A stretch of 64,000 bases of DNA, from assembly GCA_002633005.1 (NCBI GenBank), contig NMRA01000438.1, forward strand, positions 1 through 64,000. The letters are read 5' to 3'. The DNA is from Phoronis australis (lineage: Eukaryota > Animalia > Phoronida). The notes beneath the pieces were generated by a model. The model was not told the origin of the DNA. It saw only the letters and a list, made by a program, of their open reading frames with translations, and did not search any database. The position numbers and the translations under genes were made by a program. Shown piece by piece: positions 5,305-40,681 of the stretch (the first letter of the stretch is position 1; the number at the start of each line of letters is the position of its first letter).

Positions 5305-5314
5305 GTCACGTGAC
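5305..5314. promoter_or_regulatory. Palindromic E-box GTCACGTGAC (USF/MiT-TFE 'CLEAR' type) upstream of the Ig receptor start codon
   Basis: Exact 10-bp palindrome 87-96 bp upstream of ATG 5401, in a locally CpG-rich region. Full CRE palindromes TGACGTCA also occur at 3970, 4059 and 5557. Confidence 0.45.
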
Positions 5315-5400
5315 ACAGGTGCGACGAAGCCCGGATATTGACCTAAATTAACCGACGCGGCGACATACCATAACTAGGTCACCGTACTGAAGAATTTAAA

Positions 5401-5449
5401 ATGGATCAGTTGTCTGTTCTAACGTTCTTATGCGTAATTTTCAGTTCAA
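5401..5449 (+). CDS. Ig-superfamily receptor exon 1 (signal peptide MDQLSVLTFLCVIFSS)
   Basis: ATG 5401, hydrophobic leader, donor A|GTAAGT (phase 1). Joins in frame to 12071 giving ...IFSSSVLVSSQENG. Not in the ORF track. Confidence 0.8.
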
Positions 5450-8866: not shown

Positions 8867-9110
8867 CCTCCCCTGTTCCCGCCTCCCCTTTTGCCATCCC
8901 CTCTCCCTGTACCCCAACACCTCTCATTTTTTTGCATTTTTTTCTGCATCTCCCACACCCTCTGCAGGATCTTTTAATTTGGCAAATGTATTTGTATGAA
9001 GTTCACAACAGACAACGACGACATTTGGATGAATCTGACTACCGCTTTGCCCCCCATGACAATTTTGTCTTTTTTTATTGTCCCCTGTATTTTTGAAACT
9101 GCTTGGCAGA

Positions 9111-10367: not shown

Positions 10368-12070
10368 ATGAAATTTATTAAATAAGTTTCCATTGTAGAG
10401 TTGTCGGGTTCCTGTAATGTGTTTTCGGATAGATATGACATGTTCTTGCCGTTTATATTGTCGTGAAATTTTGGAAGGGGGCGATCACCTTTTTGGTGGC
10501 CATTTTGACATTTTTTAGTATCTTTGTTTTTGACATCACCCTCTCGGTCCACCAAACCGCTTGAAGGATCAATATTATGTTGTTTGAAGTGTGTTCCTGA
10601 TGAGAAAAATGAGGCTATTGTTGTTTTTCGATAGTGTTCAACTACTCTGGTGCCTACTAGTGGCAATTTTATAATTTTCGCATTCATGGCTGTAAGATCT
10701 TTCTGGAATTTAACAGAAGTATTCCTATGGAGTGGAAAATTTCTCAATTTTGAATTTGAAATCCATCTCAGAAGTTCTGCTCTGTTAGCAAATTGAGTAA
10801 ATCACTGGGTTATTTTGCATGAGTTTGGGTCCCTTTATATAACACTGCTTAACTGATAAAAAATTGATTTTGACCAATATTTCTAGAAATCACAATTACC
10901 ACTATTTTTATGGCCTTTTCGCAAGAATCATGCTTTTACTTGATATTCAAAAATTCAAATGTACCACAGGAAGGAAAACATTTTATGGTGATAAAAAATT
11001 ACGTTCAACTGTCTAAATTAATGGGAACTTTGGAAGTCTTTTAGATTTTATTCTATATAATAGTAATATCAAATATTTAAACATGTCAAAATGAGGTCAA
11101 AGGCGCTTTTGTAAACCAGACTTAGAAGTAGTTTGTCACTTGTTTTTAAGTAGAGGTAAATGTGCCAGAAAGTGCACAAGTCATTAAGTGTGTACTTCTT
11201 CATAATTTGATATTTGTAGGTGAAGTCAATAGCAATATTACGATCTTGCATGTACTCGTCAGTAAGCTAACCAACACCTCCCTCCATCATTATGTTATCA
11301 ATACTGGTAGCACAAATTGAAAATAATCTATAATGTTGTTCAGTCAAAATGTTTCACATTAGTATATGCTCAGTGTGAAATCAAACATGAGTTGGAAAAA
11401 CAGAACGTTTTAAAGAAGATAAGCGCAGAAATTCCGTCTGCCACATAATTTTCCGTTCGTGACATGTTTTTGTACTAATTTTATCCAAAGAATTGTTTGA
11501 ATTAAATAATTCTCAAGTTTTGATATACATACATTATTTCCATCTTGAAGATTTTTCAGAATCTGGAGTTTGGAGCAAATTATTATTTTTTTCTAAACCC
11601 AACTTCATACCCAAACCGTCAGGGACGGATAATTGTCGTTAGGTTAGTTAGTTAGGAAAAAACTAATGAAGATAATTGGTTCTACCAAATTTCAGCTTAG
11701 TCCAAGTGTCATGTTGTATTACTGTCCCCAAATCAATTTTAGACTGAAATCATGATAATTTTGATAAAAGTCGAACTGAAAAATTTGGTCTATAATGCAA
11801 TGTTTTTATTTTTTAGACAAAAACTACTGAAAAACACAGAGAGTGGCAAAACTTTAAAATATGTTGTGTGATACAACAAAGTTCAGGCATTTGACTACTT
11901 AGACACCAAGTTTCAAGAGCAAAAGCTAATTTTGAAAAAATACTTTGGAGGATCAAATGCCTCGATTTGACCCTAACTGCTCTGTATATTTGGAGTTCCT
12001 TAGCGTATTTTCAAGAAATTTATAACACTTTGTTTTACGTTAGTTACAGCGACTGTTTTGTATTTTCCAG

Positions 12071-17282: not shown

Positions 17283-17542
17283 AATAACGTAGAAAATATA
17301 TCTGAAACTATATAAGGCGATCCAGATCCTCCCAAGGATACTATTGTTTCGTGAAATGAAGAATATAAATCGGTAAATAAAACAACAAGAATGGATCAAC
17401 TGAAATTTGAAATTTTCGGAGGTAACAACTTCCTTTATCAATATTACTTTATTTCTGTTTTGTTGATAAAGGAAGTTGTTACCTCCGAAAATTTCAAATT
17501 TCAGTTGATCCATTCTTGTTGTTTTATTTACCGATTTATATT
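17283..17542. mobile_element. Short insertion with a perfect 80-bp inverted repeat; probable truncated Penelope-like element (inverted pLTR)
   Basis: Arms 17362-17441 and 17463-17542 are exact reverse complements with a 21-bp spacer. ttgtaaatatta occurs at 17271-17282 and 17541-17552 (TSD-like). A diverged single arm recurs at ~46622-46706. Family assignment is inference. Confidence 0.6.
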
Positions 17543-17874
17543 GTAAATATTACTAATGGACAATGCAAATTTATCCATTTCATAATGTGAAAATTGCAAG
17601 CATTTTTGCTTTGAACTCTAAGTATTAAAAATGGACAATGCAAATTATTCCATTTCTTATGTGAAAAGTACAAGCATTTTTGCTTCAGTGGGTATTACTG
17701 AATACTCAAGGTAAGGTTTTGGTTTGCAAATGAAGGTCAAAATGCGATTCACGAGGTTTCTACCTGTAGCCTTGTGTCTCTGAACGCTTATTTAGTGGCA
17801 GGTTACATGTCTGAGTCCCTACTTAACATCTAAAGATAATAAGTCAGTGTACTGAATGCACGTCTACGTTTCAG

Positions 17875-19708: not shown

Positions 19709-21017
19709 GTAAGTCGCTTTCAGCTTTTCTACCCCTTTAACTAATTTTCTCCTCCCTTCTCACTGGATCCTAGAGTGTGCATGGAATGACTGGTGGTGTG
19801 GGTCAGGCAGGAGTTCCACACAATGCATGTCTATATAGTCATGTTATTAGACACGGCACACATTTCAATACTTACGATAAAAATTCTTCAGTTTAGTATA
19901 CAATATGGCTGAAAAGCGAAATTTTATATTGTCAAATATCTCTTCAAAAATTCATTATAATTTAGTTGTTGCAGTAAAGTTTTCAACAAAAAAATGGTAA
20001 ATTTTAGCAATGTGGCAATTAGCCTGTTTGTGTACCAAATTGAAAAAATACCGTAAGTTGTTGAAGTCACCACAAATTTCAGACAGCTGTGGATAAAATA
20101 ACAAATGGTTCACACCGTACTTGGAAATATTAATTGTCATGTTACAAATGAAAACCCGTGTAAGCGTGGTTTGATTTGCGTAATTTTTGGGATCTCAAAT
20201 CACACCCAGTCTGGTTTTATTTCTTAAAAATGTTAAATTGAGGATACCAGGCACGGTCGCATGCCCCTTAACTTGATAAGTTGCATCACATTCGCTTAAT
20301 GGAATTCTGAAAATGACATTAATCTGCTCTGTGTACACTTTCATGCGATGTCTGCGATGTGACTGCATGTTTCAACTTCTTAACCGACATACCCTAATGC
20401 CATTCGCATGAGAAAATTGTTCGACATTGGATGTGCCATAGCGGTTTTTAAAGATAGTAGCATTCAAAAGCCAATGTTGAAGTCAGAACTTGGTCTGCTG
20501 TGCGGTCTGATGCAGGCCTGCAAAAAGTAGTAGAATTAGGCTCCTGCTTTTACGGACGGTAGCTGCAGACTTAAGTTTTCCACAGGTTGTATGAGCAAAT
20601 AGTTCAGTTTGCAGTGTTTAGAAGTGTTAGTAAAAGTTTCTCCTTGTGTGACATCAAAAAAGAATGCAATGTTGCAGTGCAGGACGCTACAAGTCAAGTG
20701 TAAATTTACTTAATCTTTAGCCACCTCCTTTTCCTATGTGATGAAGCAAATTGAAATGTGTTGGTTAAATTTTCTGCATCCCCGCAATGTTTAAGAAGTC
20801 TTGGGACCTTAGCTTCCATTAAAGTGCCAGTGTCTGTGTGAACACTTTACATCCCAGAATGTATCCTCTTTGGTAGATGTGCATTAAAATGTTATGGTAC
20901 ATGCATTCTAAAATGGTGTAGGTATTTGTGTGAAGTGACCATTTGATTTAACAGCGGCATCGGCATGTCAAACTTCATTTTCAAGCATTCACACCCTACT
21001 TAATGCCCTCCCCTTGA

Positions 21018-22702
21018 TTTTTATGCGCCCACATATTTATATGTGGACGCATTAAGGCGTCACCTCTGTCCAGTGTCCACTGCTCTATCTCCAAAACGCC
21101 TTGAGGTATGTTCATGAAATTTTGCACGTGTGTTCCTTCCGTAGGTGGGACGGCATGAGCGAACTTTCAGACGGATCCGATTACCGGTGTGCCCCCTAGT
21201 GGCAATTTTATTTTTTTACGTTTACCTCTGTATCTTCAAAAGTCCTGAACGGATTTTTGTAAAATTTGGTATATAGGCACCTATTAGTGAGATGACATTG
21301 TCCTGCTGTTTTCAGATGGATTCAACGTAGTTTGTGCCACCTAGTGGCCATTTTTACTGTTTTCAAGTTTTTTGCGTCCACTCCTCTATGAACCAAACTG
21401 CTCAAATGATGATTATGCAAATTGGCACATATGTTCTTACTATGAAGTGGACGGCTGACGATTTTTCGATGATTTCGACTACTGTAGCGCCTCCTAGTGG
21501 CAGTTTTTTTTACGCCTATGGCTATATCTCCTAAACCGTTCGAAGGATCTTTACTAAATATATTAAGTGTATTTATATGATGCTGACAACAGATGACGAT
21601 GACTTTCGGATGCATCTGACGACTGGTGCACCACCTAGTGGCAATTTTATTTTTTTACGTTTACCCCTGTATGTTCAAAGGTCCTCAACTTATTTTCATA
21701 AAATTTGGCGTACAAGCATCTTTTAATGAGGTGACGCTATCTCTTAGTTTTCAGATGAATTCGACCTAGTTTGTGCCATCTAGTGGCCATTTTTACTGTT
21801 TTCGAGTTTTTTTTGCGTCCACTCGTCTGTCAACCAAACCGCTTTCAGGATTATTGTGAAAATTGGCGTGTATGTTTTTAGTAGGAATTTCACAGCTGAC
21901 GATCATTTTCCGACGAGTTCTACAACTGTGGCACCTCCTAGTGGCAGTTTTGTTTTTTTGCGCTCATGTTTTTATCTCCTAAACCGTTTGCAGAATCTTT
22001 ACTTAATGTAACAAGTTTATTTATATGATGTTGACAACGAACGGCGACGGCTTTCAGACGGATCTGACTACTGGTGTGCCCTCTAGTGGCAATTTCTGTA
22101 TGTTCAAAGATCCTCAATAGATTTTCATAAAATTTTGAATATAGGCATCTATTGGTGAGATGACGCTATCATCCTGTTTTTGGATGGAATCAAGGTATTT
22201 TGCGCATCTTAGTGGCAATTTTTGCTGTTTTCAAATCTTGTGTTTGGCGTCCACCCCTTGATCAATCAAATCATTCTAGGGATGGTTTTGCAAATTGGTG
22301 TATATGTTTTCAGTGTGAAGAGGATGTTTGATGATGGTGACTGGCAACTGTGGCGCCTCCTATTGATAGTTTTGTTTTGTTTTGTTTTGTTTTTTGCCCA
22401 TAGCTGTATATCCAAAACCTACTGCAGGATTTTTATTAAATTTAGTAAGTGAATTTATATGAAGATAACAGATGACGACTTTCAGGCGGATCGAACGGAC
22501 ACTTTGCCCACTTCCGTTTTCCTTTATTTCTCTGAAGTTCCTTGACAGATTTTTATGACATATGGCATGTTCCCGTTTTTGGATGGATTGTACATTTTTG
22601 CGCCATCTAGTGGCCATTTTTATGATACAAAAAATAACCCTAAAAGCACACCATTTGCGATGCATTCGTTAGTACCTTTTAACGCTCCGCGTCGCTCTTG
22701 TT
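21018..22702 (+). mobile_element. Non-autonomous Helentron/HINE-like element, copy 2 (intron 8), with an internal ~440-bp higher-order repeat of three ~145-bp monomers
   Basis: 5' tttttatgcgcccacata..tatgtggacgca hairpin and 3' ...gtcgctcttgtt. Monomer types recur at ~21190/21630/22078, 21335/21775/22205 and 21488/21932/22353. Confidence 0.75.
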
Positions 22703-23330
22703 AATTTTCCAAAAAGTGGCGCTCCCATGCAGTTTGAGGTCCCAAAAACAATCTAGGAAATAATAGATCGGATTAATTCCACAATTGGGTGTGTAACCAA
22801 AGAATTCACGATTACCGTAAGTTGTCACTCTTATTGGCAGACACTGACACTACACAGGCAGTGTAGTAGGCCCACAATGCATCAGTGGTTTTATGTTGCA
22901 GATAATCAGAATTTTCATTGAATCAACAAACCACACATTGGTCAAGAATGATTCCCCCCGCTATTAAGCCAGCGAAATTTGGTGAAACTAAGAATTCTGG
23001 CAAATTCGTGTCTCAATGAAAAAAAATCCTCGTAAAAATTCGTTTGAAAACCACACTAATTTGCACGTGAGAACGGCACTAGTCTATTTAAAATCGTGGG
23101 CATTAAAGTCAGGCAAGTAAGTCTTAACCCTTGTCAATGTCTTCTCAATGTTTCAATTATAATAAAATAAGACAATGCAAAAGTTGTTGCATGTCAGTCT
23201 CTGTGTTTCAACATTACGTCTACCAATTCATTTTAGTTCAAAACACACTTTCAACACATCAAGCCATTTCGATCAAATCTAACTCCAAGTGGTGATTTTT
23301 GATTTTCAGCGTGGTATCACTGTTGCTTAA

Positions 23331-24233
23331 AGGCGAGGCAACCGTTTTTCATGTCATTTTTAGCAAAAATATGGTTCGTTGATTATCCAAGACATATTTT
23401 TCAGTTAATTACAGCGTTTTGGTAATTCAGACAATTACTCGCCCTCTACTCCGGAAGTGACGTTTTGGGGGGCAAGACTTTCACGCCAATTTATTTTTAT
23501 ATAGTCTGACTGTGAGAGCTGCCAAGTTAGTTATTGTTCTATCTCGGTTGTGATAAGTTTGGTCGTCATTTGCTTTTGTTTACAAGTCAGTCAACACTGT
23601 TGCTGCGTACCGCAATGTACTCATTATCGTCTCAAAGACATAGGAACAACTGTGCCACTTGCCCGAGTGTCCCGCGACACACTCCCACTGGATAGTGACC
23701 TGAGCACACAAACTACTTACATCCTGCCGTGTGTCTCCCTTGCCACACATGTGGATCCTTCTAAGTAGCCCCAATACTTTAGACAAGTCCACAATAAACT
23801 TATGAAAGATTGGCTCACCGATCTGTTCATTGAACGACGAACTGTCCTGTTCAGTGGGTGTCGAACTGGGCCTGTATTCACTCCCACTACTCAACATCGC
23901 AGCAGAGTTGCTTACAGACTCTGAGCGATATTGAGTACATCCTGGTATGCAGCAAAAGTGTGGCGTGTTAAATGATTTGCAAGCAACAGCAAACGATGAC
24001 CGAACTTATCACAACCGAGGTAGAACAATGACTGACTCAACAGCTCTCATAGTCAGACTATATGAAAAGAAATTGGCCCGAAATTCTTGCCTCCCAAAAT
24101 GTCACTTCCGGAGTAGAGAACGAATAATTAATTAGATTACAAAAAGCTTTTAATTTAATTGAAAAATATGTCTGGGATAATCAACGAACCTTATTTTTGC
24201 TAAAAATGTCATGAAAAAAGGTTGCCTTCACCT
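23331..24233. mobile_element. Internally deleted Kolobok-like DNA transposon (TTAA TSD, AGG...CCT ends, ~300-bp diverged TIRs)
   Basis: TTAA at 23327-23330 and 24234-24237. Ends aggcgaggcaacc and ggttgccttcacct, with long inverted similarity. THAP-like starts CCVPQC (+) and CCIPGC (-). Minus-strand remnant FIVDLSKVLGLL...WECVAGHSGKWHS. Confidence 0.8.
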
Positions 24234-24839
24234 TTAAAGTTATAAACAATTTCAAATTAATATGATTTTTGAAATTCTGACTGTTCAAAAATCGGGCTGC
24301 CATGGATAAAGCATGATTGACATAGAATTTCTCTTTAGGCCATAAAGCATTGTTTACTCTCAGGGTCTCTACCCCAACTCATTTTGTGACCTATGCTCAC
24401 CGCCTAAAAAACACCCGTCCAAGTCAATCTCAGCCATGCAGGTCCGTGTTTTTAATAAAAGCTACACAAAGGCACGTAAGCAAAGTTTGAAACACCATGA
24501 TTTGCCAAAAGGTGAACAAAAATACCGTGTCATTTCTTGTCATCTTGGTGAATTTTCATTTTTGAGGAATTATCTGAGCAAGGTAAGCTACTATAAAAAT
24601 CACCGCACTACTAGAGTAGCCTTATATTGGAACTGAAGAATTGGCCACCGACAGTAAAAAGTGCAAATAATACACAAAAATTTAATAAATTTACGCCATT
24701 AGTTCAGTGATATTTCGAGTGAAGAGACCCGCTTACGGTTCCAAAACTGTGTAAGTAATGGAAAGAGTATTTTACATGACTTAATAATTTCCTCATATTT
24801 GGCGACTGAAATAATTAGACATTCCATTTTTATTTGCAG

Positions 24840-24995
24840 ACCGACGGAGAGCCCCATCTAAACTATGCCGACCTGGATTTGAGAATGAGGGACGAAGACC
24901 CACCAAAGCCAAAACCACAGGAGAACGAGACGGAGTATGCAGTTATTCAACGTCCAAAGCAAAAGCAGGAGGGGCCTATAGGTACCTCCATCTAA
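24840..24995 (+). CDS. Ig-superfamily receptor exon 9 (terminal; ITIM LNYADL, ITSM TEYAVI, stop TAA)
   Basis: tttttatttgcag acceptor, phase 0: TDGEPHLNYADLDLRMRDEDPPKPKPQENETEYAVIQRPKQKQEGPIGTSI*. The nine exons sum to 1488 nt = 495 aa + stop. Not in the ORF track. Confidence 0.9.
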   Translation, partial: TDGEPHLNYADLDLRMRDEDPPKPKPQENETEYAVIQRPKQKQEGPIGTSI

Positions 24996-25030
24996 ACATG
25001 ACAATAATTGTCGCTTTAACGGATCCTGGA

Positions 25031-25081
25031 TTTGAGAACCAGTTATCTGCACTAAATAATGAGCATCAAACTGGTTCTCAG
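25031..25081. repeat. Small palindromic repeat family (tgagaaccagtt...aactggttctca), copy just after the Ig receptor stop codon
   Basis: Hairpin core recurs at ~51494-51545 and ~62288-62335; probably a tiny MITE family. Confidence 0.65.
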
Positions 25082-26156
25082 GCTTCAGGTCCTTAGCAAC
25101 AGGTGTCTATAATGGAATAAATGGTCTCCATCTTGTGCTGACCTTCTTAATTTAATGTTTGTTTTAGCTTTTTATACGATATGTTTTACCTCGTTCACAA
25201 GTGTTGCAGTAGCTTTACTCAGTTGTTCAAATTGTCGCCAGTTTCTTCTCTTGCTGTTTTTCATCACCAGGAAATCAACATCTTTACGACTTTAATTGCT
25301 CATACTTAGTAAGCTTTTCCATGACTCAAAAGGTATTCAGACAAAACAACCTGGAATTCCAGGTCATCATGGCTAGGCGGAAGCCGAATTGTCTTGTTAA
25401 AGTAGACTTTCCACTTGTTTTAGAATGAAGGGATTTACATGAAAATTAGTTTAATAGCCAAGCTATTCTAAAATTAGAATTTTGCCGCCCTAATAGTTAT
25501 TACCAGTCATTTTTGCTGTTAACAGATTTAGCCGTCACGAGGGAAAAATGGTATTTTGTTCGATTACTTCGGTCTTGTTCTGCAGCTACAGCAACTGTTC
25601 CATGCAAGAACCTGGAGCAGGTTTGCTGAGCCTAACGTGTCTCCTTTCAGTAATCACTATACCTATTTTGAGCTGGTGAAGTCGTCTGCTGAAATTGTAG
25701 AAACCTGGAGTCAGTCTTTTCCTGAATGAGCATGATGTTTCCAAATATAGAGGAGACTAGCCTTGAGGCGTAGGTCCAGAGAGGGGGCATCTTTGCTCCT
25801 CTTTCCTGTTGTTTCAGTCACGCGTTAACATGTTTTCTGTGTGTCTGTACATTTTGAGACTTCTCTGGTCGTGATCTTCGATCTGCCTCTGGTGTCAGTT
25901 CACATGCCCAAAGTTTTTGTCGGAGCCTTTTGCAAGATGAAACTGTTGACGTTTTTACCCACATGTGAACGGGGTAACTCTGCCTGAACATATGCTCTGA
26001 GCATTTGAAATAGTTTAGTGTGCTTTGAAAACAATTGTGTCACTTTTCATGATCTATAAACATGTAGGCCGTGTTGCAGAAAGCTTCAACTTATCCACTG
26101 GATAAGGCGATGGTTTCATAACTTCGACTTAATTGTCAAACAATTGTGTTGTGACG

Positions 26157-26157
<1 letters not shown>

Positions 26158-26190
<33 letters not shown>
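26158..26190. repeat. (ATT)11 microsatellite
   Basis: Directly visible. Confidence 0.97.
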
Positions 26191-29100
26191 TTGTAAATGC
26201 AAGTAGCCATATCGCTTGGTTACCATTGGGTGTGGAGTGCATAGGCTTTTACCTTAATCAGGAAATACGTGTGCCTGAATTTCATTTCGGTTTCTCAATT
26301 TTTATCATGTCTATGTATTGCATGTATACAGCTGCAATAACTGCCCCAGCAGAGTCGCAGTTATTTTATGCGAGTGCGTGTGTGGTGTTAGAGCAAACAA
26401 AGTTCCATTTGAGAAAATTGAACACATTCCAAAAATCTGTTCCGAGCAACATCACCCATGGTGAAGTTATATATACATATATTTATTGGGCGAGTTTTGA
26501 TATTGATACCGCTATACTTTATATTTATATTTAGCCTGGGGGGCACTCCACTGAATCTTGGGCATGGTATGCTGTCGCCGATTTAAAAGATGAACACTGC
26601 CAGATGGTATTCGCAAGTAAACAAAAGATGAACCATGAACTTTTGTTGCTAGCAAAGATATTTGGTGAAAAAGATTCTTGTGTGGAAGTTTCGCAATGAA
26701 ATGACCCAATATAGCAGCGCATTTCCATATATCCGAGAAAGGGAGTACCCCCAAACATACATTGGCTCTATAAATGGCTGTGATCTCTGCATTTTTTATT
26801 GACAACATTCCATCTCGATGGTGATATTTTCCAATGCATTTCAAATTGATTGAATAAGAAGTTGACTAGTTCCTTAGAAATTTAATTAACTATTGCTTGT
26901 ATAGTATAAACATTGCTTTGTTAGAAAATAAACATAGAAATTAGCCAGGAATGTACTTTTAAAGCTTTCATATTTACATAATTTTTTGCCATAATAGGAA
27001 TGAATAAAGACTGTTTGTATATACGTAATGCAAAGAATGTGTTGATTGGGTCTTGCACTTGTGACTGATCTGCAAATGATTGAACGAATGCACTGTGTAC
27101 GTCATAACACGATAGGAAACATTTACTCTTTAAATGCAGGGCTAACCAGAAAGATTGTGTAGATGCAATACACCTTGAATGGCACATGGCTTGCAAACAC
27201 GACTTTTAGCAAAACCTGTTACCACAAAACACTGCAAGGCTGGGCACCTAACAAAAACCCCAGCCTTGGTGCAAAACAGCGTGAAAACACAGCGGCGGAA
27301 CCATTTGGATAAAAAGTAAGCAAAAAATCACAAAAACTACTCTCCCTTGAAGTTGGTTAGTGGCAAGAAAACAATGTCGTCAGAGTGTTATTCCACAGTT
27401 AAATATGTGAAACAATCATTTGCATTAACATTGAGCACCATGAAATGGAGTGCCATCTGTTGGCCAATTTTTGTTTTCTGCAATTCTTCAATCCAGTGCT
27501 TTTTTCCCCCATGTTCGCGTCAGCAAGTAGTTTTGAGTATTTCACAAGCAACTGAAATTTTGAACAAATTGCGTCGGCACAGTTATCATCATCTCTCAAA
27601 TGATGTCACTAAACCGAAACAAAAATTAAACTAACGGCAAATGCGTGGGGCGCAAACGTACTGCTTTGAGATTGACCTCTGAATTATGTTTTGTTACAAA
27701 AGCAGGATAGATTGTTTCTTTTAAACCTTGGTACCACGGACAAAGTAGGCCTCATTTGAGTGTCGGGAGTTGCAAAAATTCATGCACAGCTGGGTGTGCT
27801 GATTTTGGTTCAAGTTTCATTGTGCGAGGACCAAGACTAGAATTGTGGTGAACTGAAAAAAGCGGGCTCCGCCTCTATTGGCATGTTTTTACTTATATTA
27901 TTCTGCTGCTGTGTTTTAACATTTAAGTCGTGCGTAACAAGTCAGCTGGCTACAAAAACCCAAACATGTGAATTCGTGGGAAATATTTATTAACCTTCAA
28001 ACTCAGTGCTGGGATCACTATTACGAAGCAAAGTCAATTTTGTAGCACAAATAAAGGCATACCATGTGACTTCATTGTTAGTGTTTGTGGTGCAACACTC
28101 CTGTTTTGTGATGCGGAGGTTGTTTTTCCAGGCCTAAGATTCTTGTTTCACACGTGTCTTTCTATTGTTAGTAAACCCTGAGTTGTGTCAGTGTTCGCTT
28201 TTCCATCCATTTCAAGTGATAACATTTATGCATTATGAATTCGCTGAAAGCTTGTGAGAATTATTCTTCGAATGCCTGCTTCTGTTCGACCTTCTGCTGA
28301 GGTACTTTGAGTACCCACATCTAAATGTTTAGCTTGTCATTTACAAAATGCACCCATGTGTCACCCATTCAGTAGGTATTTTACGAGCTAATTTTACCTG
28401 GGTGGCATGAAAGTAGTCCTGTAAATACCTGTAGAATTTCAGTGCAATGCGAATCTATGATATTAGCTAATCCAAATTAAGAATGTTGCTAATCAAAACC
28501 AATGCAGGAAAATTCATGACGAATGTTAAAATGTATGACAAAAGCATCGTGTATAGGATATTAGCAGGCATACTGTGAAGTTATATTTTTGGTGAAGGTC
28601 ATTTGTAATTGGAGAAAAAAGTGGTAAATTGTGTTTTGAAACGGTAGGCACTGTTTTAATGCATTGTTAGCTTTTAAAAATGGGTGATTTTCTGTAATGC
28701 CTTTTCTACCTAGTAAACATGAACTTATTATATTCTGCCTTTATTTCTGAATTATAGATGTGAAGATTGAATATATAACTTTTGAGTTTAACATCCCACC
28801 TTTCAACACGGAACACAGTCAAACCCTACAGAATCGTATGTCAGCCATGGTCTCATGAACAGGACCGCCCGGATTTTACAGCAACACTCACATGTCACCT
28901 CGTTTTCAATGCCATTGGAGTTGGCATGTTATTTGTTTTTGTCTGGTTCTTTAAAAGCTTTTCTCAATGACATTACTCTATTCGCTCTTCCAATGCCAGT
29001 GAAGTATTACTGCAGTGCTGTTGGCTGAAACTCTGATTTGAGAAAGTTTGAGAAACTGGAGCAATTATAATACTCGTGGATGCGTGATGTGAAATTCTTT

Positions 29101-30318
29101 GACTTCCTCGACATCAACGAGAGACATAAAAATGTTCCTGACTTCCAAATCGAGGTCACGCAGTTTTTTGACTCCGGTACAAAGGAGAGTTCTATTGCCA
29201 TATAATTTGGGGCAGCCTTATAGGACCACATCTAACTTTCATAATAACACTTACGAAGTTTGTGGACACTAAAAAGAGACAAACTGCACAAGACCAACAG
29301 TAATACATGATTCATTACAGAAAAGTGTGACTATGGGTTACAATTATGACAAGATCTTATTTGCACAGCGATTGTGTAACCGTTGTTTTAAAAATTTTCG
29401 TTAAACCAAAAATGTCATGATCAAATACTGGAATATCCTCAAGAGGATGAATCAGTAGACCTATTCACCCCCAGAACTCAGCTTCTGTCAAATGAACCAT
29501 GAAGACATTTCGTAGGACAGAAAGGTGCCAGACAGCACTTAATGCACCCAAATACTATATTTATAAAATAAAAGAACAAAACCACTGCAATTCTACTCTA
29601 ATTCGACATTCGCCAAAAAATTGACACGAGCATGATTTGGTGTGATATTCACAATGACACGATGCGTGCAACCTCTTCACTCAATTTTTGCGGTTGAATC
29701 GACAAAGTCAATCCATAAATTTCTTGTTATTCAGCTACAGAAAGGCCAATAACAGTCTGGCAGACAGCCAAACCCGGTAGACGCGTCACATAAGACAACT
29801 CCTACGCTACCATTTGGTGCTTTGTTACCCCAACACCAAAACAAGCCTAAGCCAGACTGCGACTAACCCGTCATAATCAATTCACAAATTAATGCTTGTG
29901 GCTATGCCGCGATGCTGAAGAAAACCTATATGCTAATTTCTCTTATAGCGCATCCATTTTAGAAGTTCAAAGATGGCTACTATTTACTTTTCAATTTTAA
30001 AAACAGTCATTTTGGCTGTTAGCCTTGGATTTTAAAACTTGTAAACAGGCGTGTTGGTTTACGACCACAATTATTGCATCCAACATCTTCAGCCAAGTCC
30101 ATGAATAGCTAATGGCTCACTTCAATCGGTGACAGCATCATCAAGCCTTTGATGTGTCGAAGACTGTACTGGATACCCTGGGGTAAACAGCACAGGCTTT
30201 CTCGTCCACTGGCGTGCAAATCCTGTTAGCGTAAGATTTGCCTAATGACAGGAGCTAGTGAAGTGCACCACGGCTTCCAGCAAGATAGCTCTTCACACCT
30301 CCACCAACACTGCTAATA

Positions 30319-30510
30319 TCATCTACTGCTACTTTGTTGTTGTTCCTGGTTCACTTTAGATGTATTGTCTGTCCGGTCCCGATTTACCCAATCAGGCAAT
30401 GGCGAACTCCAGTCTGCAGGGGGTCTTCTTCTGTACTCCCATACGTCATTATCCTGCGCTGCTTTCAACCTCTCCAAACGCCGTTGTGTCTCATGTTCTA
30501 TGATATTCCT
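30319..30510 (-). CDS. C22orf39: C22orf39/UPF0545 homologue exon 3 (terminal)
   Basis: Minus-strand acceptor ttccag, phase 0. RNIIEHETQRRLERLKAAQDNDVWEYRRRPPADWSSPLPDW matches the family VW..R..PP.DW..PLP motif. Confidence 0.9.
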   Translation of the reverse strand, partial: RNIIEHETQRRLERLKAAQDNDVWEYRRRPPADWSSPLPDWVNRDRTDNTSKVNQEQQQSSSR

Positions 30511-31524
30511 CTGGAATTTCAAAACACACTCGATTTTCAACATACGTCACAAATATGTGCCGCGACAATGCCATTTTTGAGCACAATTCGTCCACTGGAT
30601 TTTATAAAATTTGGCATCATTATACTGGCTTGATCGACATAAGCTACCACTTTAGTTTGATGATGACATCTTGTAAGATGGTTGTTATGATCCAAGCACG
30701 AAATGCGATTTAACTAGACAGAGTACTGTACAATCTATATATCCAAGTTCAAAAACACACTCATGGGTCACTCTAGGTAATATCTCTCATTATTTAAATT
30801 CTTTAATGAGCAATTTTGACCAATTGCCAAGAAATAGGCCTTTGAAACAGGTTTACAAACTAAACCTGGCCAACTCCAGAAATCTTGCCCAACTATATAC
30901 AGCACGCTTTAATTTAGGACAAAACTTAAGTAAATGCTAAGATTGAAATTAGTCTCAATATTTTCGAAGGCTTATGTTGTTGCTGAACATGTTTAGAATG
31001 TTACCAAACATTGTCCGCTGACGGCCGCTATAACGTACAATCTAGGCTAAAAGCAAGTTTAAAACTAAGTGTAATTTTTGCTAAGAAATTCAACACACTT
31101 AAATTTGACTTTTCCGCCATATTGTATCCAAAACTGAAAAAGTAACTGCATACTCCTCAGCTTGGGATCATTAATTAAACTGATTCAAGTCTGCAGGGAT
31201 GAGAACGACCAAACAATCAAAGCACTAGTGACTCTGCTCAGGCCATATCATTAATCATGCATAATCATAAACGGCTAGTTTGGCATTTAAAGACATCACT
31301 CTTGTCTAGCTTTAGTCGTTTTGTAATCAGTGGCCACGTCTGCAAAAATTTGTCTTTAATTATATGCCTACATTCCCTGTGACTCGTGCTGGCGCACAAA
31401 TGTAATCCCATCATAATAAAGAACATAGTATAGTTAAGAGAGTGAAGGGCCAAATTCGATTTTTTTTGGTGGCTAAAGAGGGCGAAATGTCGCTTAAAAT
31501 CACAGCTGTGTAAACAAAACGTAC

Positions 31525-31689
31525 CGCGTCGTCAGTGGAGTTTGTCTTGCGGTAACTGATGCAGGATTTATAGTCCTGCCACCACTTGTCACAGTCGAGC
31601 AACTTCCCAAACACGTAATACTGGTTTAACCGACCCATTAGGCATGTGCACTCGTAGTGTTCATCTTTATACATTTCACATGGACGGAT
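31525..31689 (-). CDS. C22orf39: C22orf39/UPF0545 homologue exon 2
   Basis: cttttcag acceptor and GCG|GTACG donor, 165 nt, phase 0-0. IRPCEMYKDEHYEC...LNQYYVFGKLLDCDKWWQDYKSC has the family's four-Cys RPCE.Y..E...C.....YY..G...C..W..D...C pattern. Confidence 0.93.
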
Positions 31690-33870
31690 CTGAAAAGACA
31701 GAATTACCACAAGTTCATTTTCAGTCATTTTTAAGTGACTTAAAAGCATGTTGGAGTTCCATCGACACGCACTTATGCGTCTGAAGTAAAAAAACTCCGT
31801 GTATGAAATATTGCAAAATCGGGCGATTTTTGGACAATCAAAATTAGAATCCCATCCCATAATTCAGTGTTCCAATCTCACCAACCTTTTTATGGTTTGC
31901 GATTTATCCAATATTGACGCCACCTGTTGGTGATTTCATGCTGCTTCAAGGATGACACAAAATACATTATTGCATACTGTGATGCATCCGCCTATCCGTT
32001 AAAAGGTCAAACATCAGTTCCTGTCGTATTGTTAGAATACACTAAAGCTCTGAATGCATACTTTTGAAACACTCACCTTTCAATCATTAATGATTTTGTA
32101 TTGTCTTACTTTTTGGCAAGATTCCTGCATCTACAGAACACAACCCTGCTTGCAAAAATTGGACGCTTAAAAAACAATTCCTACATGTATAAAAGCGTTG
32201 TGCAGTACAGTACACAAAGTATCAATCTGATCAGCCATTTCTGAGATATGGTGTTTTGAAGTTTGAAAAATATGAAATTTGTCAAGGGACTGCATAATAG
32301 TCGTCACAGGATGTGCCACCATCATATGCTGGGACTTCAGGACCTGTGTAGACAGTGAGCACTGTCTGCTCAGTAGAGACGGTGTAACTCCCATAGGAGC
32401 TTCATACGCCAGAAGTTTTTTTGGCAAATTATGCCTCAAAATGATTAAAAAATCAAAGTAATGTTGTTATAAGTACCTTTTGCGCATAGACGGACACAGA
32501 CAGGAGGCCGTCGATGTCTTTAATTCCTTCCAACTCGAACAAATATTACCAGTATCAAACTTTTTCATTGAGCAATCCTTCGTTCAGTTCCCAAAATCGG
32601 AAACTTTTTATAGTCATTTTTAACACTGAGCACCGTAGGTGGTATGACTTCATATCCCCTGGTGTGCGCAGTGTGCCAGCAGAGACGATGGTCATTGTCT
32701 ATAGGAGCCGTGCTGCTAGCATGCGGATCACTTTAGCGTCCAAACCAAATGACGCACTGAATTGGCATTTTTTTGATTGCACATCAGACAGTATTTTAGT
32801 GAGGCATTTTATACGACAGCTATTCCCAATTAAGTCATGTATCACAACATCTGGGTCGTGTCATCGTAGACGCAAGAATCATGTGAGTATGTTAGTGTGG
32901 CCACGTGCTTCCTTTGCACTGGATGACAATATCTCGCGAAATATTCTATTTACATTACATAATACACCCTTCTGGGCATGCCTTAAACAGGCCCCCGTCC
33001 CTGTTGCCCAATCTCGTTGCGGTCACCAGATATGTGTGACCTCCTCATAACTAGTGAGAACAGCATTTTTCAAAAATTTTAGAAAATGTGCATGTAATAT
33101 ACATCATTAGAAAGCTCTCCACGAGACTAAGAGAACGGTGGAAAAATTTTTTAAATCGGACTTGTGGTTCCGGAGAAAACGTCATTTTTGTGTCGAAATT
33201 TTTTATAAAAATTCTGTCAAATCGAATTTGCGAGTTTAAAATGTTATGGTTTCAAAATTAAGTAACCTAGACAGACATGTGATACAACATTTTAAACAAC
33301 TTTTTATGATAAATAATATGCCGAAAAAAACATTTTGATTGGACGTTCCTGTGCGAAGATATTGACCTTAAAAGTCAACATAGTCGACAAAGAAAAGTCA
33401 CAACATTCAATTTTGCAATTTCAAATTGACATAAAATAAGAATTACTCAAGGAAAAGAAACAAATAAGGTATCATTTTAAAGATTTTTCATCAGGAAATT
33501 TGAAATCTGATAATTGGTTGAGCAAATTATTGATATTACTTTGTGATTTTTTGTTAACATGCAATTTGCAACCGACTTAACTTTGTCAAAATCAAATACA
33601 TTAAATAAAAACTAAAGATAAACATCATTTCAAAAATGTATTGATGACAAGTATGATAAATAGAATAGTTTAATACAAATTTCTGAAAGACATATAATAA
33701 ATAGAACTTATTTAACATAAACTTTCCACAACCGAAGATCTTGTCTTGAGCCATCCAGGAATGTTCATGCTATGTACAAACAAGGACCTCAATATTTATA
33801 ATCTCAAAGTTGTCTTAAGTGATATGAGCACAAAAAGGAATGTAGGATGGACAAATAAATAAAGTTCTCA

Positions 33871-34081
33871 AGGCATCCTCAAGGAAGGGGGGCCAAACCC
33901 TTTCACTGACTACCGAAGTCAGCGGAGTACCTTACACAGATCAACTAGTGGCATCCTCAAGGAAGGGGGGCCAAACCCTTTCACTGACCAAGTCAGTGGA
34001 GTACCTTACGCAGACTTGTGGCGTCCTCAAGGAAGGGGGGCCAAACCCTTTCACTGACTATCGTAAGTCAGTGGAGTACCT
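33871..34081. repeat. Three ~65-78-bp tandem units with conserved hairpins, just downstream of the transposase stop
   Basis: ggcrtcctcaaggaaggggggccaaaccctttcactgac-[variable loop]-agtcagyggagtacct at ~33871, ~33950 and ~34020. Confidence 0.92.
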
Positions 34082-34098
34082 ATATATACAACATAGAG

Positions 34099-34209
34099 TT
34101 ATTCCAGCACTTCGAGGTCCCCTTGACCGAAGTCGTCCATCAACCGAAAGGTGTAGACAGCCTCATCTTCATCATAATGGATATTAAACCAGGATGGATA
34201 TCCAGGGAC
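34099..34209 (-). CDS. Transposase coding exon 2 (C-terminal half of Spin/Ssty Tudor-like domain)
   Basis: Minus-strand acceptor tattctttcag at 34211-34210, phase 0: VPGYPSWFNIHYDEDEAVYTFRLMDDFGQGDLEVLE*. Joins donor CAG|GTTAGT at 34480 across a 270-nt intron. Not in the ORF track. Confidence 0.9.
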   Translation of the reverse strand, partial: VPGYPSWFNIHYDEDEAVYTFRLMDDFGQGDLEVLE

Positions 34210-34479
34210 CTGAAAGAATAACATGATTCATAAACAATTTGTTGCTACGACATATAAGCATTACTAATTTGAACATTGTTACGCAAAAATGTTACCACAA
34301 CATGGAAATTATGCACAACACTTCAACAAACAAAGGCGACATAATACTATTAAACAAAAGGGTTAAAGAAAAAGGAAATAGCAAGGTAGGATACGTCAGT
34401 ACATGAAAATCAAGAGCATATTGCTTGTCAGATGTTGCGATTTGTTAATAAGCATTGCAAAAGCTCATTACATACTAAC

Positions 34480-37401
34480 CTGAGAAATAACAAAGCCATG
34501 ATACCAAACCTGGTCATCACCTTCATCAAACTTGTGCCGAACATTTTTGCCAACCAGGAAATTTGATGATGTTGGCTGCGCTGCTGACTTTGACTGCTTT
34601 ATCAAGGTTTTAACGTTCTGTGCCAGTTCCTCAGGCGACAAATTAACTCGACGTGTATTCTCCAGCTTTGTAAATCGATATGTTGTGGGGTCAGCAAGCT
34701 GATTCAGGACATACTTTCGAAAGTTCAACTGGGCTTTCAAAGCACTGGTCTTGTTTTTGATGGTTTTCAACCTTTTCAGTCGTGTTTCTACCTCTTCTTC
34801 TGTCTGCCACAGTCCCCAAACAATCATCTCACTAGTGAATTCCTCCAGCTGACGTAACTTCTTTGCTCTTGTCTCCTCCTTCTTTCTCTCTCTCTCTTCC
34901 ATTATCTCTCTTCTCCTTCTTCTGATTTCATACTCCCTCCTCTTGAACAGCTGCCTTGTTGCCCTCACGCGGCTACTGGCTCCATCAAAAAGTTTTGCTT
35001 TCTCAGCATCAGACTTGGTGTGCAACCACTGGTGGGTCTTGTTGTGGCAGTACATGACGTAGCTTTCTGCGCACAGGGTACTAACAGCCGGCATTTCCCT
35101 CAGAATTCGGTCAAAATGACCAAACACAGATTCCGAGTATTTATTATGCTTGGGTAGGCCGACTGTCTTCCTCCGGAGGTCTTCGAATTCATCGTCAGGC
35201 AGTGTGCACCACTTCCCACCTTGAAGGTGGTCGGCAAACAATCGCTGCACAACTGCCGATAAGGCTGGCAACATACATTCTAAAATCACCTGCACCTTGT
35301 CATCATGTTCCCATGATGTTACGAGACTGGCGAAGATAGGGCTGGTCTCTAGAGAGCGCTGGCTACAAAATGACATGACCAAATCTCCCAGCATAAAATC
35401 TTCCACCCTGGTGCTACACTGATAGATGAAATTCAGCACTTCCTCATAGTATGTCGAGGCATCTAGAATGTGTATACGTTTATCTTCAATGATGGTCCAG
35501 AGGGGAGAGGTGATTAGATGACAGATGAGACCAAGCGCTTTGCAGCCTGCCAGATACTCAGGAATATGAAGGTCAAACTTCACTGCTTGAAGAAGTCCAT
35601 TTGAGTCGTTGGTAGAGAGATAATTTTTGAGATATTCAGAAAGGAAGAATAGTGCAGCGGCATTGGAGAAAAGAATGTTGAAACGGTTTCCACGGTACGG
35701 TTCTATAGGCAAAGACCGAAAGCCATGGTTGGTCAGAAAATCTTGAGCAAAGACAGTAAACTCGTAGTGACAACCATTCTTCTCGTCAGCTCCTCTTGCG
35801 ATGGCCTTTGATGCTGTTCGAATGAGCCGTGATGTGCCAGATTCGGACGACCTCAAGAAAGATGAGTTGAAAATGGGAAGTGATTCACCAAAGAAACCTT
35901 TCTGGATTTCAAGTAAAGATGAAGATGCCGCCTCTGCCATGTGAACTAATGAGTGCAGACCACAGAAGAAATTGGAAATTTGGCTGACAGCCAACTGTTC
36001 ACTCTCATCCAGGGTTTCAAAATTTTCAATCATTTGTGGTAAGATGTCTTTGCGGTATTCAAACAGTAGTTCGTTAAATTTCATTTGAGTCGCAGCTCTA
36101 TCAGACATGGTAGCAGTGATGTTCAGCAAAAGTTTCTTTGTTGTTTGTGATGATGATGAGATTGATGCCGTTTCAATGTCTGCCAAAATTTCTTGAAATA
36201 CTTGAAGTGTGTTCTGGGACGATTTGGTGACAAGTTGGCGAAGACCAAGAGTGTACATGTCGCCAGCGACATCACTGATGTGAAACCCTTGGTACTTCTT
36301 GCCGAACTTTGATGTTTCGTCTGAAAGCAGGCCGAGAGGAAAAGATCCATCAGACTCAACAACCTCAGCAAGCTGTGACTGTGATAACAGTAGACGCATG
36401 ACATTCCAGTTGTTAATGGTCGACTTGCTGGGGAGATCGGATGCTTCCAAGCCGGCTAACTTTAAGACAGATGAGATCACATGAGGAATGTTTCCAGATG
36501 ATACATTTTCTTGCAATAAACTAAATACACATTCATTCATTTGGGTGCTGAACTGTCTCCCAGTTTTTGTGGTTACTATGTTGGTACCCTGGTTATTGGC
36601 TACTTCAGTTATCCATTCGATCTCCTGTTTGCTCTGATCCAGTTCTTGTTGCATTGCTTCAAGTGCTTTGTTATTGTCCTCCAACAACTTCTCTGTCTTT
36701 TCTTTTTGCTTCTCAATCTTTCTACGATTTTTTTTCTCCCTTTCATTCAAATACTGCACCTGACTTGATTTGCGTTTCAGTTTCTTACGATTACGTTGCG
36801 CCTGACTTTTCAAGTGTCTAACTTCTCTAGCTTTCTGGTGGTATTTCACTTTGAATGATTTTGGAGTTTGAGTTTCAAGTTCTTGGACTTTTCTTTTAGT
36901 TTCATGAAGTTCACATGCCAGATCATCAATTACACGCTGAAGTTCTGATGGCTGCAAAGTTGAGACGTGCGATGGCGTGGAGCGACCAGACGATGATGGA
37001 GAACGGGACGATTGTCGAGATGTACCCGGAGTTGAGGTACCAGATGACTTTGCAGAGACATCACGAGAAAAGGACAGAGTGGGTGTCCGAGAGACACTCC
37101 GAGACCTCGATGGCTGAGGGGTTGTCTCCAGTGATGTTGATGGCTGTGGAGTTATCTGACGAGGAGTCTGAGGGTGTTTTGGAATGTGAAAGTCTTTTTT
37201 GTTGAACTTTTTCAGATTCGCAAGTCCTTTTTTGTACCTGGAACTCTTGTTCAGCTTTGCAAATGTTGCGTAAACATCCTTTATGTTTGTAGCAAGCTCT
37301 TCTTTATTCACATTATCATGTTTATGAGCAATAGCATTAACAGTATCTGCAATACTGAATTTATTCTTTCGATAAATTGCAAGTACGTCCTTGATTTTCA
37401 T
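34480..37401 (-). CDS. DDE transposase coding exon 1 (974 codons; spliced product 1010 aa)
   Basis: 977-aa ORF with an S/T/P-rich linker and a coiled coil, then LLSDETSK (D361), MSDRAA (D434), FCGLH (CxxH), RGNRF and NKYSESVFG (E757). This is the DD..CxxH..E layout with a long insertion domain typical of the hAT/P/MULE/Kolobok group. Superfamily not assigned. Confidence 0.88.
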
Positions 37402-37782
37402 GGTTCAGGGTTAACTGCAAGAAATAAGAAGCAATGCAAGAAGCAGGAACAGACACCACAAAGGAACAAAAAGCGACAAAAGCAAGATTGTTAAGCATAG
37501 TGCTAACAGGTTATGCAGCACATGAAAATATAGTGTTAATAAACAAACACACCACAAAAGAAGACTGAGCAAGCATTTAAAGACCCACAAAAGCATATTA
37601 GTTGCCGAAACATGTAACATGGTTTAGAATGTCTTTCAGACAGTCATTGTTAAGTGTTAAAACAGGAAAAGCATGAAAGCGTTAAGCTAAATTCACTGTC
37701 AACCAAAGCTGTAGCAAACTCACCACACAACGTAATCTTGGTTCACAGTGAGGATTCTGAAAATAGAATAAGATACGTAATG

Positions 37783-38365
37783 TTTACCTCTGAACATTGA
37801 AGGCGAGGAATGAAATAAACATAAACATAAACTTTGATGAAAGTGTCAGTAATTTACTCACCACAGCAATTACCTCAGAACATTGAAGGAGATCGAGGAA
37901 CGAATTGAATCCAAACCGTAATGAAAGTTTTAGCAAGTTACTCACCATAGTAAATAACAATAAACACTACCACAGTGCAACAAAGGCATCAACATCAACA
38001 TGGAATCTGAAATAAAATTATATCTACATCATTGGAAATTTAAAAGTGACTGTTGTTCGGTTGTTTACTATAGAACACTAAAAGTGAAAATGAAATCAAC
38101 AGATAACTGAAGGTGGACAAAAGGGTGGGCCAAAGAGCTCGCACCCCCACAAGCAATGTTCCAAATATGTCATTTTTAGCAAAAGGCAACTATTTTATAT
38201 GTAAAACCTGCATTTAATTTTGAAATTTGTGGTTGGCCTCCTGCAACATTTTTGATCAACCACGTATAGCTGTGATGACACTTTGGAAATTACTCACCAT
38301 AGTAAATAAAAATAAACAGCATCATACAACACCATCATCACTGTCAACAGAACATGGAACCTGAA
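37783..38365 (-). repeat. Locally duplicated segments carrying minus-strand splice donors (putative multi-exon 5' UTR of the transposase)
   Basis: ttacctcwgaacattgaagg at ~37783 and ~37870; ttactcaccayag at ~37853, ~37938 and ~38290 (GGTGAGTAA on the - strand); acatggaayctgaaaata at ~37998 and ~38352 (acceptor-like on the - strand). Confidence 0.55.
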
Positions 38366-38733
38366 AATATATGAAATAGACATTGGCAGCAACAGTGGTG
38401 CTTCAGTAGACACTGAAATTTAAACTGCACCAATTACTTGGCTTAAAGACGGGCATTAATGCAAGTAAACGCACTGATGGATAACAAGAAATAATTGCAG
38501 TCAAGAAATACTCAAGTTTAAAATTCATTAAAAATTACCGTTAAGGTGCAGGCAAACTCCTTCATGAGCAAAAGAACAAAGAAGTTAATAGTTAAAGAAA
38601 AGTGGAAGAAAAAGAAGGAACTGAACTGAATGAAAGAGAACTTATAACAATGAAACTTTCTTATTGACTCAACTGTAAATAATTAACTTTTCAATTAAAT
38701 ACAACATCATGTGGGGATGACATTGATAATGAG

Positions 38734-39171
38734 TCACTTAGAGTCAGAGGTACTGGGTATACACTGTTCTGACATAAACGCAGCACGATATTTGTTTGGC
38801 AGTGTCTTGGGTGGTGGTGGTGGCATACGGTACTTCTTCACAGACTCCCCAACAGCATCAGGAGCTGAAAAGCATCGCCTGATGGGTGGAGGGGAGAGCC
38901 AAAGAGAAGGAGGCTCAGACCGTGTGTCCATGAGATCATTCAAGTCTGTGACACAAGTATGCCTGTCTGCATCACTGACCCCTTTTGGTCTCAGATAACC
39001 CACACCCGAATATGATCCTGCTTTTCCAAATATGTAAGATGAAGATCGAGAGAGGCTAGAACCAACTGAATTTACTGATAAAATGTAAGTAGAATCAGTA
39101 GAAGCAGGAAAGTAGAAGGATCTGGACCAAGAGTTAGAAGCAGAGTCTGATGAAACAGAAATGTGAGACAT
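38734..39171 (-). CDS. Ser/Pro-rich accessory or upstream ORF within the transposon (145 aa from the ATG at 39171)
   Basis: Open frame MSHISVSSDSASNSWSRS...RMPPPPPKTLPNKYRAAF, more GC-rich than its AT-rich flanks. No recognisable domain. Confidence 0.3.
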   Translation of the reverse strand: MSHISVSSDSASNSWSRSFYFPASTDSTYILSVNSVGSSLSRSSSYIFGKAGSYSGVGYLRPKGVSDADRHTCVTDLNDLMDTRSEPPSLWLSPPPIRRCFSAPDAVGESVKKYRMPPPPPKTLPNKYRAAFMSEQCIPSTSDSK

Positions 39172-40681
39172 CTTGATAGTAAACTGATAAATAGGAGTGA
39201 AATTATAAGAACAAAAAATAACAAAGAAAATAACTGGTTTGGTCCACAGCATCTTCCAACAAAGCTTACCTGGAAGATATAGACCAGGGTGAGATGTATG
39301 AATAATCTAGCAAACCTTAATTTTTTTGTTGAAAACTATATACTTGCCTGTGGTCAGAAAAAAGTTTATCGAAAGCATGTATATTTTTATGGTAGTGGAC
39401 TACAAAGTCTTGAAAACAAAGGGCTGTAGTAGAAATATGCAATTGTAATATTTGTTTAATCTAAATTTAAAATGTTTCCATTTTGTATCTTGAAATTCTG
39501 GCTAAACTGCCTTGGCCAAGAAGGCAACATATGGGTGTGGCCCTGTCTGGCAACAAGCCAATTCAACCCAAGTCTCAGTGGCTTGACCAACAAAAATGTG
39601 AGGCAAAATAGAAAATAAAACCTAAATATGAGAATCATTATTCTTACTACCAGAAATGATTGTTTAGTTCTCTTTTACATTGTGTTTTCATCAGGAAAAG
39701 TGCTTCAGTATTGTAAAACAAACATTCAACGCGATTCGCAGGAGCACCCCTAGCGGCAGTACCCGGAACTACGAAGTGAGTCAGAAAAACGCCCGATTGT
39801 CAGAAATCGACGAAGTGCTCATTAGCAACAAGTGTTTGAAATAGTTAAGTAATGAACCCTTTAGTGCGGAATACAATTCATTATGTTCGCAAATTATGCT
39901 ATATACCAATAAATTCAGATCGAAATTGAAGGTCGCGGGAATAGGCAACTTTTTCAACTTTTAAGTGCATGAAAGTGAAAACTACTTACATAATCGTGTT
40001 CGCATGAGTTCCTTCTATAAACTCACGAAGTTTCACGTCAAAATTCGAGAGTTTAGTCTTCTCCTGGGTTGAAAACCAAATAGCAGTCATTTTTACCGGC
40101 TTCCATTTTGCTCTGAAAAATCGGTGACGTCGCTGCAAAAAACTCGTGCAAAGTATTATTAAACGGATTTTGCGATAAAAAAAGACTATCAGATAAGTAA
40201 AACAACATATTATTTCATACTTTGCGATAATTTTTATTTACATTTATTATATTTTTGAGTGATTTTTTGCCGATTGTAATGTGCGAATTTTACACGGTGA
40301 CAGATACGCGAAGCGATTTGGTGACGTATGTTGTCCTCGCTATCATAACCCCCTACCTTTCCGTTTGATCTCGAACACATGGACATTAATGGAGTTCAGT
40401 TTCAATTCTGTCAACGGAATGAAAGAGTAGTTGGAACAAGGTTTTAATTTTTATAAATATGGTGTATTTGAGACATGCTCCAGAAAGATGGAGATAAGCT
40501 CCCTCTGCCGCCGGCGTTACACTCCCCATCTGTCTCGGGCTCGGCTCAGTGGTCTAGTGACGGTCTGGCAATGTCCTGAGCAAAATGAGCAGGAAATGTT
40601 CGGTTACACTTCATCTACATAGTTTCACAGAAGTCTGTCTTTTCAAATGAGCAGAAATTTCCAAAAAAATTAACGTATTAC

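Follow-up and report, generated by a model that had tools for sequence, protein, structure and literature searches.

A 64,000-nucleotide stretch of the Phoronis australis genome (contig NMRA01000438.1; hereafter, the window) carries an intact and young hAT-like DNA transposon whose transposase ends in a single Spin/Ssty domain. A hAT-like transposon with a Spin/Ssty reader that would tether it to chromatin is, in our judgment, the likely source of the domesticated three-repeat Spindlin of vertebrates. With slightly less assurance, we also lean towards the fuller account in which the Spindlin/Ssty genes came from the H3K4me3 reader of an invertebrate transposon, which was triplicated by the host and then turned against transposons. 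The features on which these readings depend are listed below, with the kind of evidence for each in parentheses.

33052..40342, minus strand: whole hAT-like DNA transposon, 7,291 bp (depth steps, empty-site contig, ends, target duplication)
33045..33051, plus strand: 7-bp target-site duplication TCATAAC, left copy (empty-site joint and sequence)
40343..40349, plus strand: 7-bp target-site duplication, right copy (empty-site joint and sequence)
33052..33066: terminal inverted repeat on the 3' side of the gene, TAG start, 12/15 match (sequence)
40328..40342: terminal inverted repeat on the 5' side of the gene, TAG start (sequence)
33872..34081: 70-bp tandem repeat, 2.8 copies, past the stop codon (sequence)
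34209-34099, minus strand: last exon, 36 aa plus TAA, completing the Spin/Ssty domain with its second half (Pfam and PDB matches; acceptor in RNA)
34479-34210, minus strand: phase-0 GT-AG intron, 270 nt, at SQ|VP (sequence; same intron in relatives)
34480..34560, minus strand: first half of the Spin/Ssty domain (sequence and Pfam)
34480..37401, minus strand: main transposase exon from its ATG (sequence, predicted model, alignment)
37724..37757, minus strand: short upstream exon with donor 37723, 5' edge predicted (RNA joint and sequence)
38734..39172, minus strand: Ser/Pro-rich upstream ORF of ~146 aa within the element (sequence)

The preliminary description placed the Spin/Ssty unit in a mobile element, and the inverted ends, the target duplication, and an empty-site contig bear this out. 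The ends are short and imperfect and escaped plain repeat searches; they were revealed by read data. One contig, with 23 letters on its short side, joins 33044 to 40343, and seven letters at the joint fit both sides. Joints and depths were taken from contigs of DNA run X1, which has the same species label and is possibly the window's own source, so they are not independent of it. Identical contigs from the interior of the element had a depth of 14-32 versus 42-45 for the flanks, which would fit a heterozygous insertion. The ends of the element reached a depth of ~900-5,700, and a joint from 34355 to 38789 had a depth of 2,537 (depth does not equal copy number in either case); together, these values point to a much commoner deletion derivative. 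This derivative consists of 33052-34355 plus 38789-40342 and retains the two ends together with the second half of the Spin domain; diverged copies are transcribed in three RNA runs. Ends and target duplications were sought in 19 of 69 relative loci, where nothing convincing was found. At relative locus L013, the reverse strand at 4138 has a TAGCGAGAAC start that closely resembles the ends of the window element.

The 63-aa domain is divided between two exons. The minus-strand frame 37404-34468 (978 codons) terminates with half of a Tudor-like domain, three codons inside the intron, and the product of the exons joined by coordinates is 1010 aa without internal stops. On the minus strand the domain begins with F/LVGK at 34560/34557; 34480 is the final position of the first exon (..VISQ), and translation of the last exon gives VPGYPSWF..LMDDFGQGDLEVLE, followed by a stop. 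Acceptor 34210 was in use in RNA (four reads in one of three raw runs); reads across donor joint 34479 were not listed in these three runs. The donor was accepted because an identical GT-AG intron is present in 5 of 69 relative loci (L004, L005, L030, L043, and L055), annotated homologues are spliced, and the match ends right after SQ in 61 of the 120 homologous ORFs listed, out of 155. The full domain lies within the ORF in 37 of these 120, and the predicted protein has no domain in 22. RNA depth across the transposase exon was mostly below 5 and is uninformative on expression either way. In some transcripts the short upstream exon is spliced straight onto the last exon (37723 to 34210), and the transposase exon is skipped whole; the corresponding RNA joint, 34207 to 37722 (CT..AC with the cut at +2), was seen in run X7 in four reads at four starts. 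These transcripts may represent regulatory splicing or may be products of deletion copies. Farther upstream, at 37780-38370, short segments occur in similar pairs, bearing GTGAG as donor and AG as acceptor, and resemble duplicated 5' exons of the element, and a Pfam scan of the stop-to-stop frame of the Ser/Pro-rich ORF gave no match.

Scanned separately, each half of the domain scores under the Pfam cut-off on its own, and the two halves are complementary: the first covers positions 1-26 of the Spin-Ssty profile (PF02513; E 0.073) and the second positions 27-50 (E 0.0013). Staub (2002) is said to be the paper on the Spin/Ssty repeat. Searched against the PDB, the 36-aa last exon matched 17 Spindlin sequences, with E values of 5e-9 to 2.5e-7, the next match having an E of 0.79; its only matches below E 0.7 are thus Spindlins, and the C-terminal LLDDY..GDL tail is that of Spindlin repeat 2, as previously described, so an unrelated Tudor family is not indicated. 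Among 50 family members, 33 had a Spin-Ssty Pfam match at E<=0.1, the best being 1e-12. The unit at 34099-34560 is therefore real and its coordinates are exact. It had been called stand-alone, and it is indeed single, but it forms the C-terminus of the transposase. Relative to Spindlin-1 to -4 (PF02513; PDB 4MZF, 4H75, and 5A1H), the window protein shares the domain family, the repeat-2 cage, and the acidic residues for the H3 tail, and the predicted model of a relative's domain aligns to a Spindlin-Z cluster at TM 0.88. It differs in having one copy rather than three, in the fusion of that copy to a transposase inside a mobile element, where a Spindlin is a fixed host gene without transposase, in the intron that interrupts the domain, in Tyr at the W151 position and Asn at Y167, and in the absence of a partner pocket for R8me2a or K9me3. 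The domain can also be aligned, with TM 0.81, to a structure cluster of 348-aa, mostly molluscan proteins, which could be a non-transposon carrier of it.

The transposase exon encodes an N-terminal helical domain, a coiled coil, an RNase H core, and a C-terminal helical domain, with catalytic residues D361/D434/E757 in the core, a CxxH at 480-483, and R573. CxxH is a feature of the hAT transposase family. Among 58 relatives, D434, C480, H483, and E757 were present in all 58, R573 in 57, and D361 in 50, the other eight being gapped at that position. An AlphaFold model (mean pLDDT 85) retrieved Hermes as the top 11 Foldseek rows (E 1e-6), and full structural alignment to Hermes gave Z 16.4 and an rmsd of 4.8 over 352 residues; the next structures by Z were ISCth4 (10.0) and the P element (9.3). 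By this model, the enzyme is a hAT-like DDE transposase of the Hermes fold. Kolobok, P, and MULE were rejected, as their folds rank below Hermes where solved and the duplication is not TTAA. What the element shares with Hermes and other hATs (PDB 8EDG and 4D1Q) is the RNase H DDE core with its helical insertion, the CxxH, and short inverted ends that start with TAG; hAT terminal inverted repeats are short, with a consensus start of YAG. The differences are an identity of only 10-12%, a 7-bp target-site duplication instead of the usual 8 bp, and the C-terminal Tudor. In addition, neither the hAT Pfam domains nor solved hAT transposases matched P0001 at E<=1, no hAT Pfam domain was found among 25 of 42 families listed (50 family members scanned), and no BED finger was detected by Pfam scan. 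hATw is a hAT group with a 7-bp target duplication. Repbase, according to the text available, also annotates hAT families that have 7-bp duplications (PMC4455052). Because no hAT Pfam domain was detected and the duplication is 7 bp, we use the term hAT-like rather than canonical hAT. Language-model features of the core placed it nearest to clusters from Basidiomycota, Mollusca, and Chordata, a result that serves only as a lead.

In the available text on SPIN1 (PMC3967050), repeat 2 binds H3K4me3 through F141, W151, Y170, and Y177, and the H3 N-terminus is held through E142, D184, and D189. The four cage residues align to F, Y, Y, and Y of the window domain, and E142, D173, D184, and D189 each align to D; by alignment, then, the window domain has both the repeat-2 aromatic cage and the acidic H3-binding residues. 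Of 170 transposon domains, 119 have an aromatic residue at every cage site and 51 lack the full cage; D184 is kept in 159, and the cage occurs together with both acidic residues in 80. Over 58 relatives the domain averaged 48.6% identity against 38.0% for the transposase and was the more similar of the two in 1547 of 1653 pairs, and selection is therefore acting on it within the transposon. With the pocket kept and the domain conserved above the transposase, chromatin reading is likely, and from its sequence we consider it fairly probable that the domain acts in the transposase as a reader of methylated histones, predicted to be of the H3K4me3 type. A less probable reading, to which we would give perhaps one part in four of our belief, is that the domain is real and serves instead in protein-protein contact, in multimerisation, or in binding a non-histone methylated partner. 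At the W151 position 129 of 170 transposon domains have Tyr, at the Y167 position 169 of 170 have Asn, one transposon clade has Leu at Y177, and Tudor 3 of SPIN1 operates via protein contacts, as reported in the portion available (bioRxiv 10.64898/2026.08.20.746118). Against this stands the joint retention of the cage and the acidic residues for H3 A1/R2 in the window domain and roughly half of the family. The SPIN1 repeats make one integrated globule according to the same partial text (PMC3967050), and a lone repeat may thus behave differently. As a histone reader, the Spin/Ssty Tudor domain would likely bind methylated histone tails and tether the transposase to chromatin; a transposase multimer would present several readers, and insertion would be biased toward marked chromatin.

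The domain had been described as most like repeat 2, and this holds by profile score, the family profile giving 28.3/53.4/20.7 bits against SPIN3 repeats 1/2/3, but not by identity. The window domain is 36/33/38% identical to SPIN1 repeats 1/2/3, the family means are 32/35/33%, and the SPIN1 repeat closest by identity was repeat 2, 3, or 1 in 66, 53, and 51 of the 170 transposon domains, respectively. Given these identities and this split, the domain cannot be called a copy of repeat 2 in particular. The window domain combines the cage and tail of repeat 2 with the QVP found in repeat 1, and on sequence grounds it is best regarded as a sister of all three repeats. Domain-to-repeat identities of 32-35%, compared with 25-31% between repeats, had suggested an ancestor-like status; this was dropped as evidence of direction because identities give no root.

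Multi-repeat Spindlins have a restricted range in the protein searches, which had cyclostome (lamprey and hagfish), amphioxus, tunicate, and other invertebrate genomes outside their scope. Searching 1.84 billion representatives with the profile yielded 770 matches, and the best 150 of these were classified as 75 transposon-linked proteins, 23 multi-repeat proteins, and 52 single-domain proteins without a detected transposase. Eighteen of the 23 multi-repeat proteins were looked up; the organism was named for 12, all jawed vertebrates, and two of the other six are partial duplications of the transposon-type domain. A Spindlin query likewise gave only jawed vertebrates among the named organisms in the 120 of 173 matches listed, and Spindlins are described as vertebrate proteins in the available text of PMC3967050. 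No invertebrate three-repeat Spindlin was present in the best 150 of 770 matches, where summed repeats rank high. The preliminary description had asked whether the transposon copies nest within an ancient cellular Spindlin clade; in these data they do not. The transposon family itself is broad. The window transposase has 155 homologues (120 listed), and the hosts named among the matches listed are bivalves, one abalone, and one sea urchin. Each of 102 new domain matches has one repeat, 95 of them with transposase pieces. The deep lineages L016, L027, L024, L062, and L035 carry Spin-like domains. In place of the Spin type, a distant relative has a Tudor-like domain of the conventional kind (WYPGEV), encoded farther downstream in a frame of its own (L031:6146-6499).

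Two trees bear on the direction of transfer: a transposase tree of 57 rows and 650 columns, and an unrooted domain-only tree of 64 rows and 62 columns. For the domain, 39 of the 170 main-type copies and four to six Spindlins were used, and rows without the domain, including L031 and L050, were pruned after rooting. The root was set on L031 and L050, which do not fall on one side of a branch, and it carries a long-branch warning, with no true hAT outgroup. The deep split of the transposase tree reappears in the domain tree (99/85), and the domain thus descends vertically with the transposase. Repeats 1-3 of Spindlin are joined into one group (91/92) in the domain tree, on the side of the main clade. 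When this group was placed on each of the 89 branches of the fixed transposase tree, 68 of which are in the main clade, the RELL weight was 95.4% for the main clade, 2.7% for its stem, and 1.8% for the root zone; the AU test accepted the stem (p=0.37) and, of 20 placements in the root zone, 7, the best of them with a delta lnL of 11.1 and p=0.06. Repeat 1 placed alone was divided as 41% main, 16% stem, and 43% deep. Deep loci are broken or fast-evolving copies and may cluster through long-branch attraction. Of the two routes that had been left open at the outset, domestication and capture, the data thus lean to the former: the RELL weight favours the transposon-to-host direction, which we regard as the likelier from sequence, short of proof.

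It had also been suggested that the position of the SQ|VP intron be compared with SPIN introns to test the origin. In the transposase tree, the copies that bear the intron make up a single derived clade (support 92) amid intronless lineages. The intron therefore arose within the transposon and, being confined to that clade, is uninformative on the origin of Spindlin. The clade sister to the intron-bearing group (P0072, P0075, P0076, P0079, P0089, and P0114) has predicted proteins without a Spin domain, which may reflect loss or an additional intron. The introns of Spindlin appear, indirectly, to lie between repeats: among 148 proteins, 11 of 22 early ends of read-through Spindlin ORFs fall at residues 196-199 and none at 157-160.

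The stronger competitor to a transposon origin, to which we assign roughly a quarter of the probability, is a single capture from a pre-vertebrate cellular Spindlin-like gene, of one repeat or three, that was lost or is unseen in invertebrates and from which Spindlin also descends. It would accord with the root-zone placements that the AU test accepts, with the 52 single-domain proteins lacking a detected transposase (48 of which have fewer than 60 residues ahead of the domain) among the best 150 of 770, and with the readiness of transposons to take up reader domains, for which the available text of one survey gives 823 candidate fusions (bioRxiv 10.1101/2021.11.30.470311). It has to contend with the small RELL weight of that root zone, with the lack of any invertebrate three-repeat protein in the same best 150, and with a transposon domain that is about equidistant from all three repeats. 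Capture of repeat 2 from a vertebrate Spindlin after triplication, followed by horizontal spread among marine invertebrates, is very improbable: repeat 2 scores highest by profile (53 versus 28 and 21 bits), the tail is common to both, and the unrooted tree (repeat 2,(repeat 1, repeat 3)) is compatible with a root inside Spindlin, but the domain has the QVP and LVGK features of repeats 1 and 3, absent from repeat 2, joins ~0.7 changes per site below modern repeat 2, belongs to transposases that have diverged to 26-33% identity, and has no named vertebrate host among the matches listed.

Under a transposon origin of Spindlin, the element would much earlier have acquired an ordinary Tudor domain, probably from a host. 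In an early vertebrate the domain would then have left the transposase and been triplicated, after which the pocket would have been kept in repeat 2 while repeats 1 and 3 diverged. Tandem pairs of Spin-like domains at L016:8398-8883 and L027:1608-2054, from one transposon lineage, were considered as a possible intermediate equivalent to repeats 1 and 2, which is not supported: their identity to any SPIN1 repeat is 21-28%, and in the domain tree they fall among the deep transposon domains. Their PDB matches are Spindlins only, and the pair is apparently an independent duplication; a single-sequence fold of the two-repeat tail of L016 (pLDDT 37) was too low for use.

RAG1/RAG2 are vertebrate genes domesticated from a DNA transposon. 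As with them, the origin proposed for Spindlin involves transposon relatives in invertebrates and a host gene in jawed vertebrates; it differs in that the accessory reader would have been kept and not the catalytic core. Fusions of readers to transposons are also established, and the available text of the fusion survey (bioRxiv 10.1101/2021.11.30.470311) includes chromodomains in Gypsy, hAT-chromo in a sponge, and PHD in cnidarians; the window element likewise fuses a mobile-element enzyme to a chromatin reader, the difference being that its reader is Spin/Ssty. "Spin" as a word is absent (0 occurrences) from that survey's main text, and the supplements may name the domain. Within the accessible portions of the literature searched, no paper ties Spin/Ssty to a transposase or proposes a transposon origin of Spindlin, and no origin of Spindlin is stated. 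A widespread, still mobile family with the single-unit form is a concrete and testable source. SPIN1 silences young transposons via Tudor 1 and 2, according to the available text of bioRxiv 10.64898/2026.08.20.746118, and, if the proposed origin is true, this would be a domestication that retained the reader and not the nuclease, the reader later serving transposon silencing. Irrespective of that history, an intact DNA transposase with a built-in putative methyl-lysine reader may be guided by chromatin when it inserts, a candidate role that can be assayed directly.

Other repeats lie elsewhere in the window. A separate repeat at 32170-32830, with a depth of ~20,000-40,000 in run X1, lies close to the left end of the element; an 890-bp element with long inverted arms occupies 23336-24227, and a 94-bp palindrome is at 17348-17556. 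Arrays with units of ~440 bp are found at 8999-10700 and 21065-22560.
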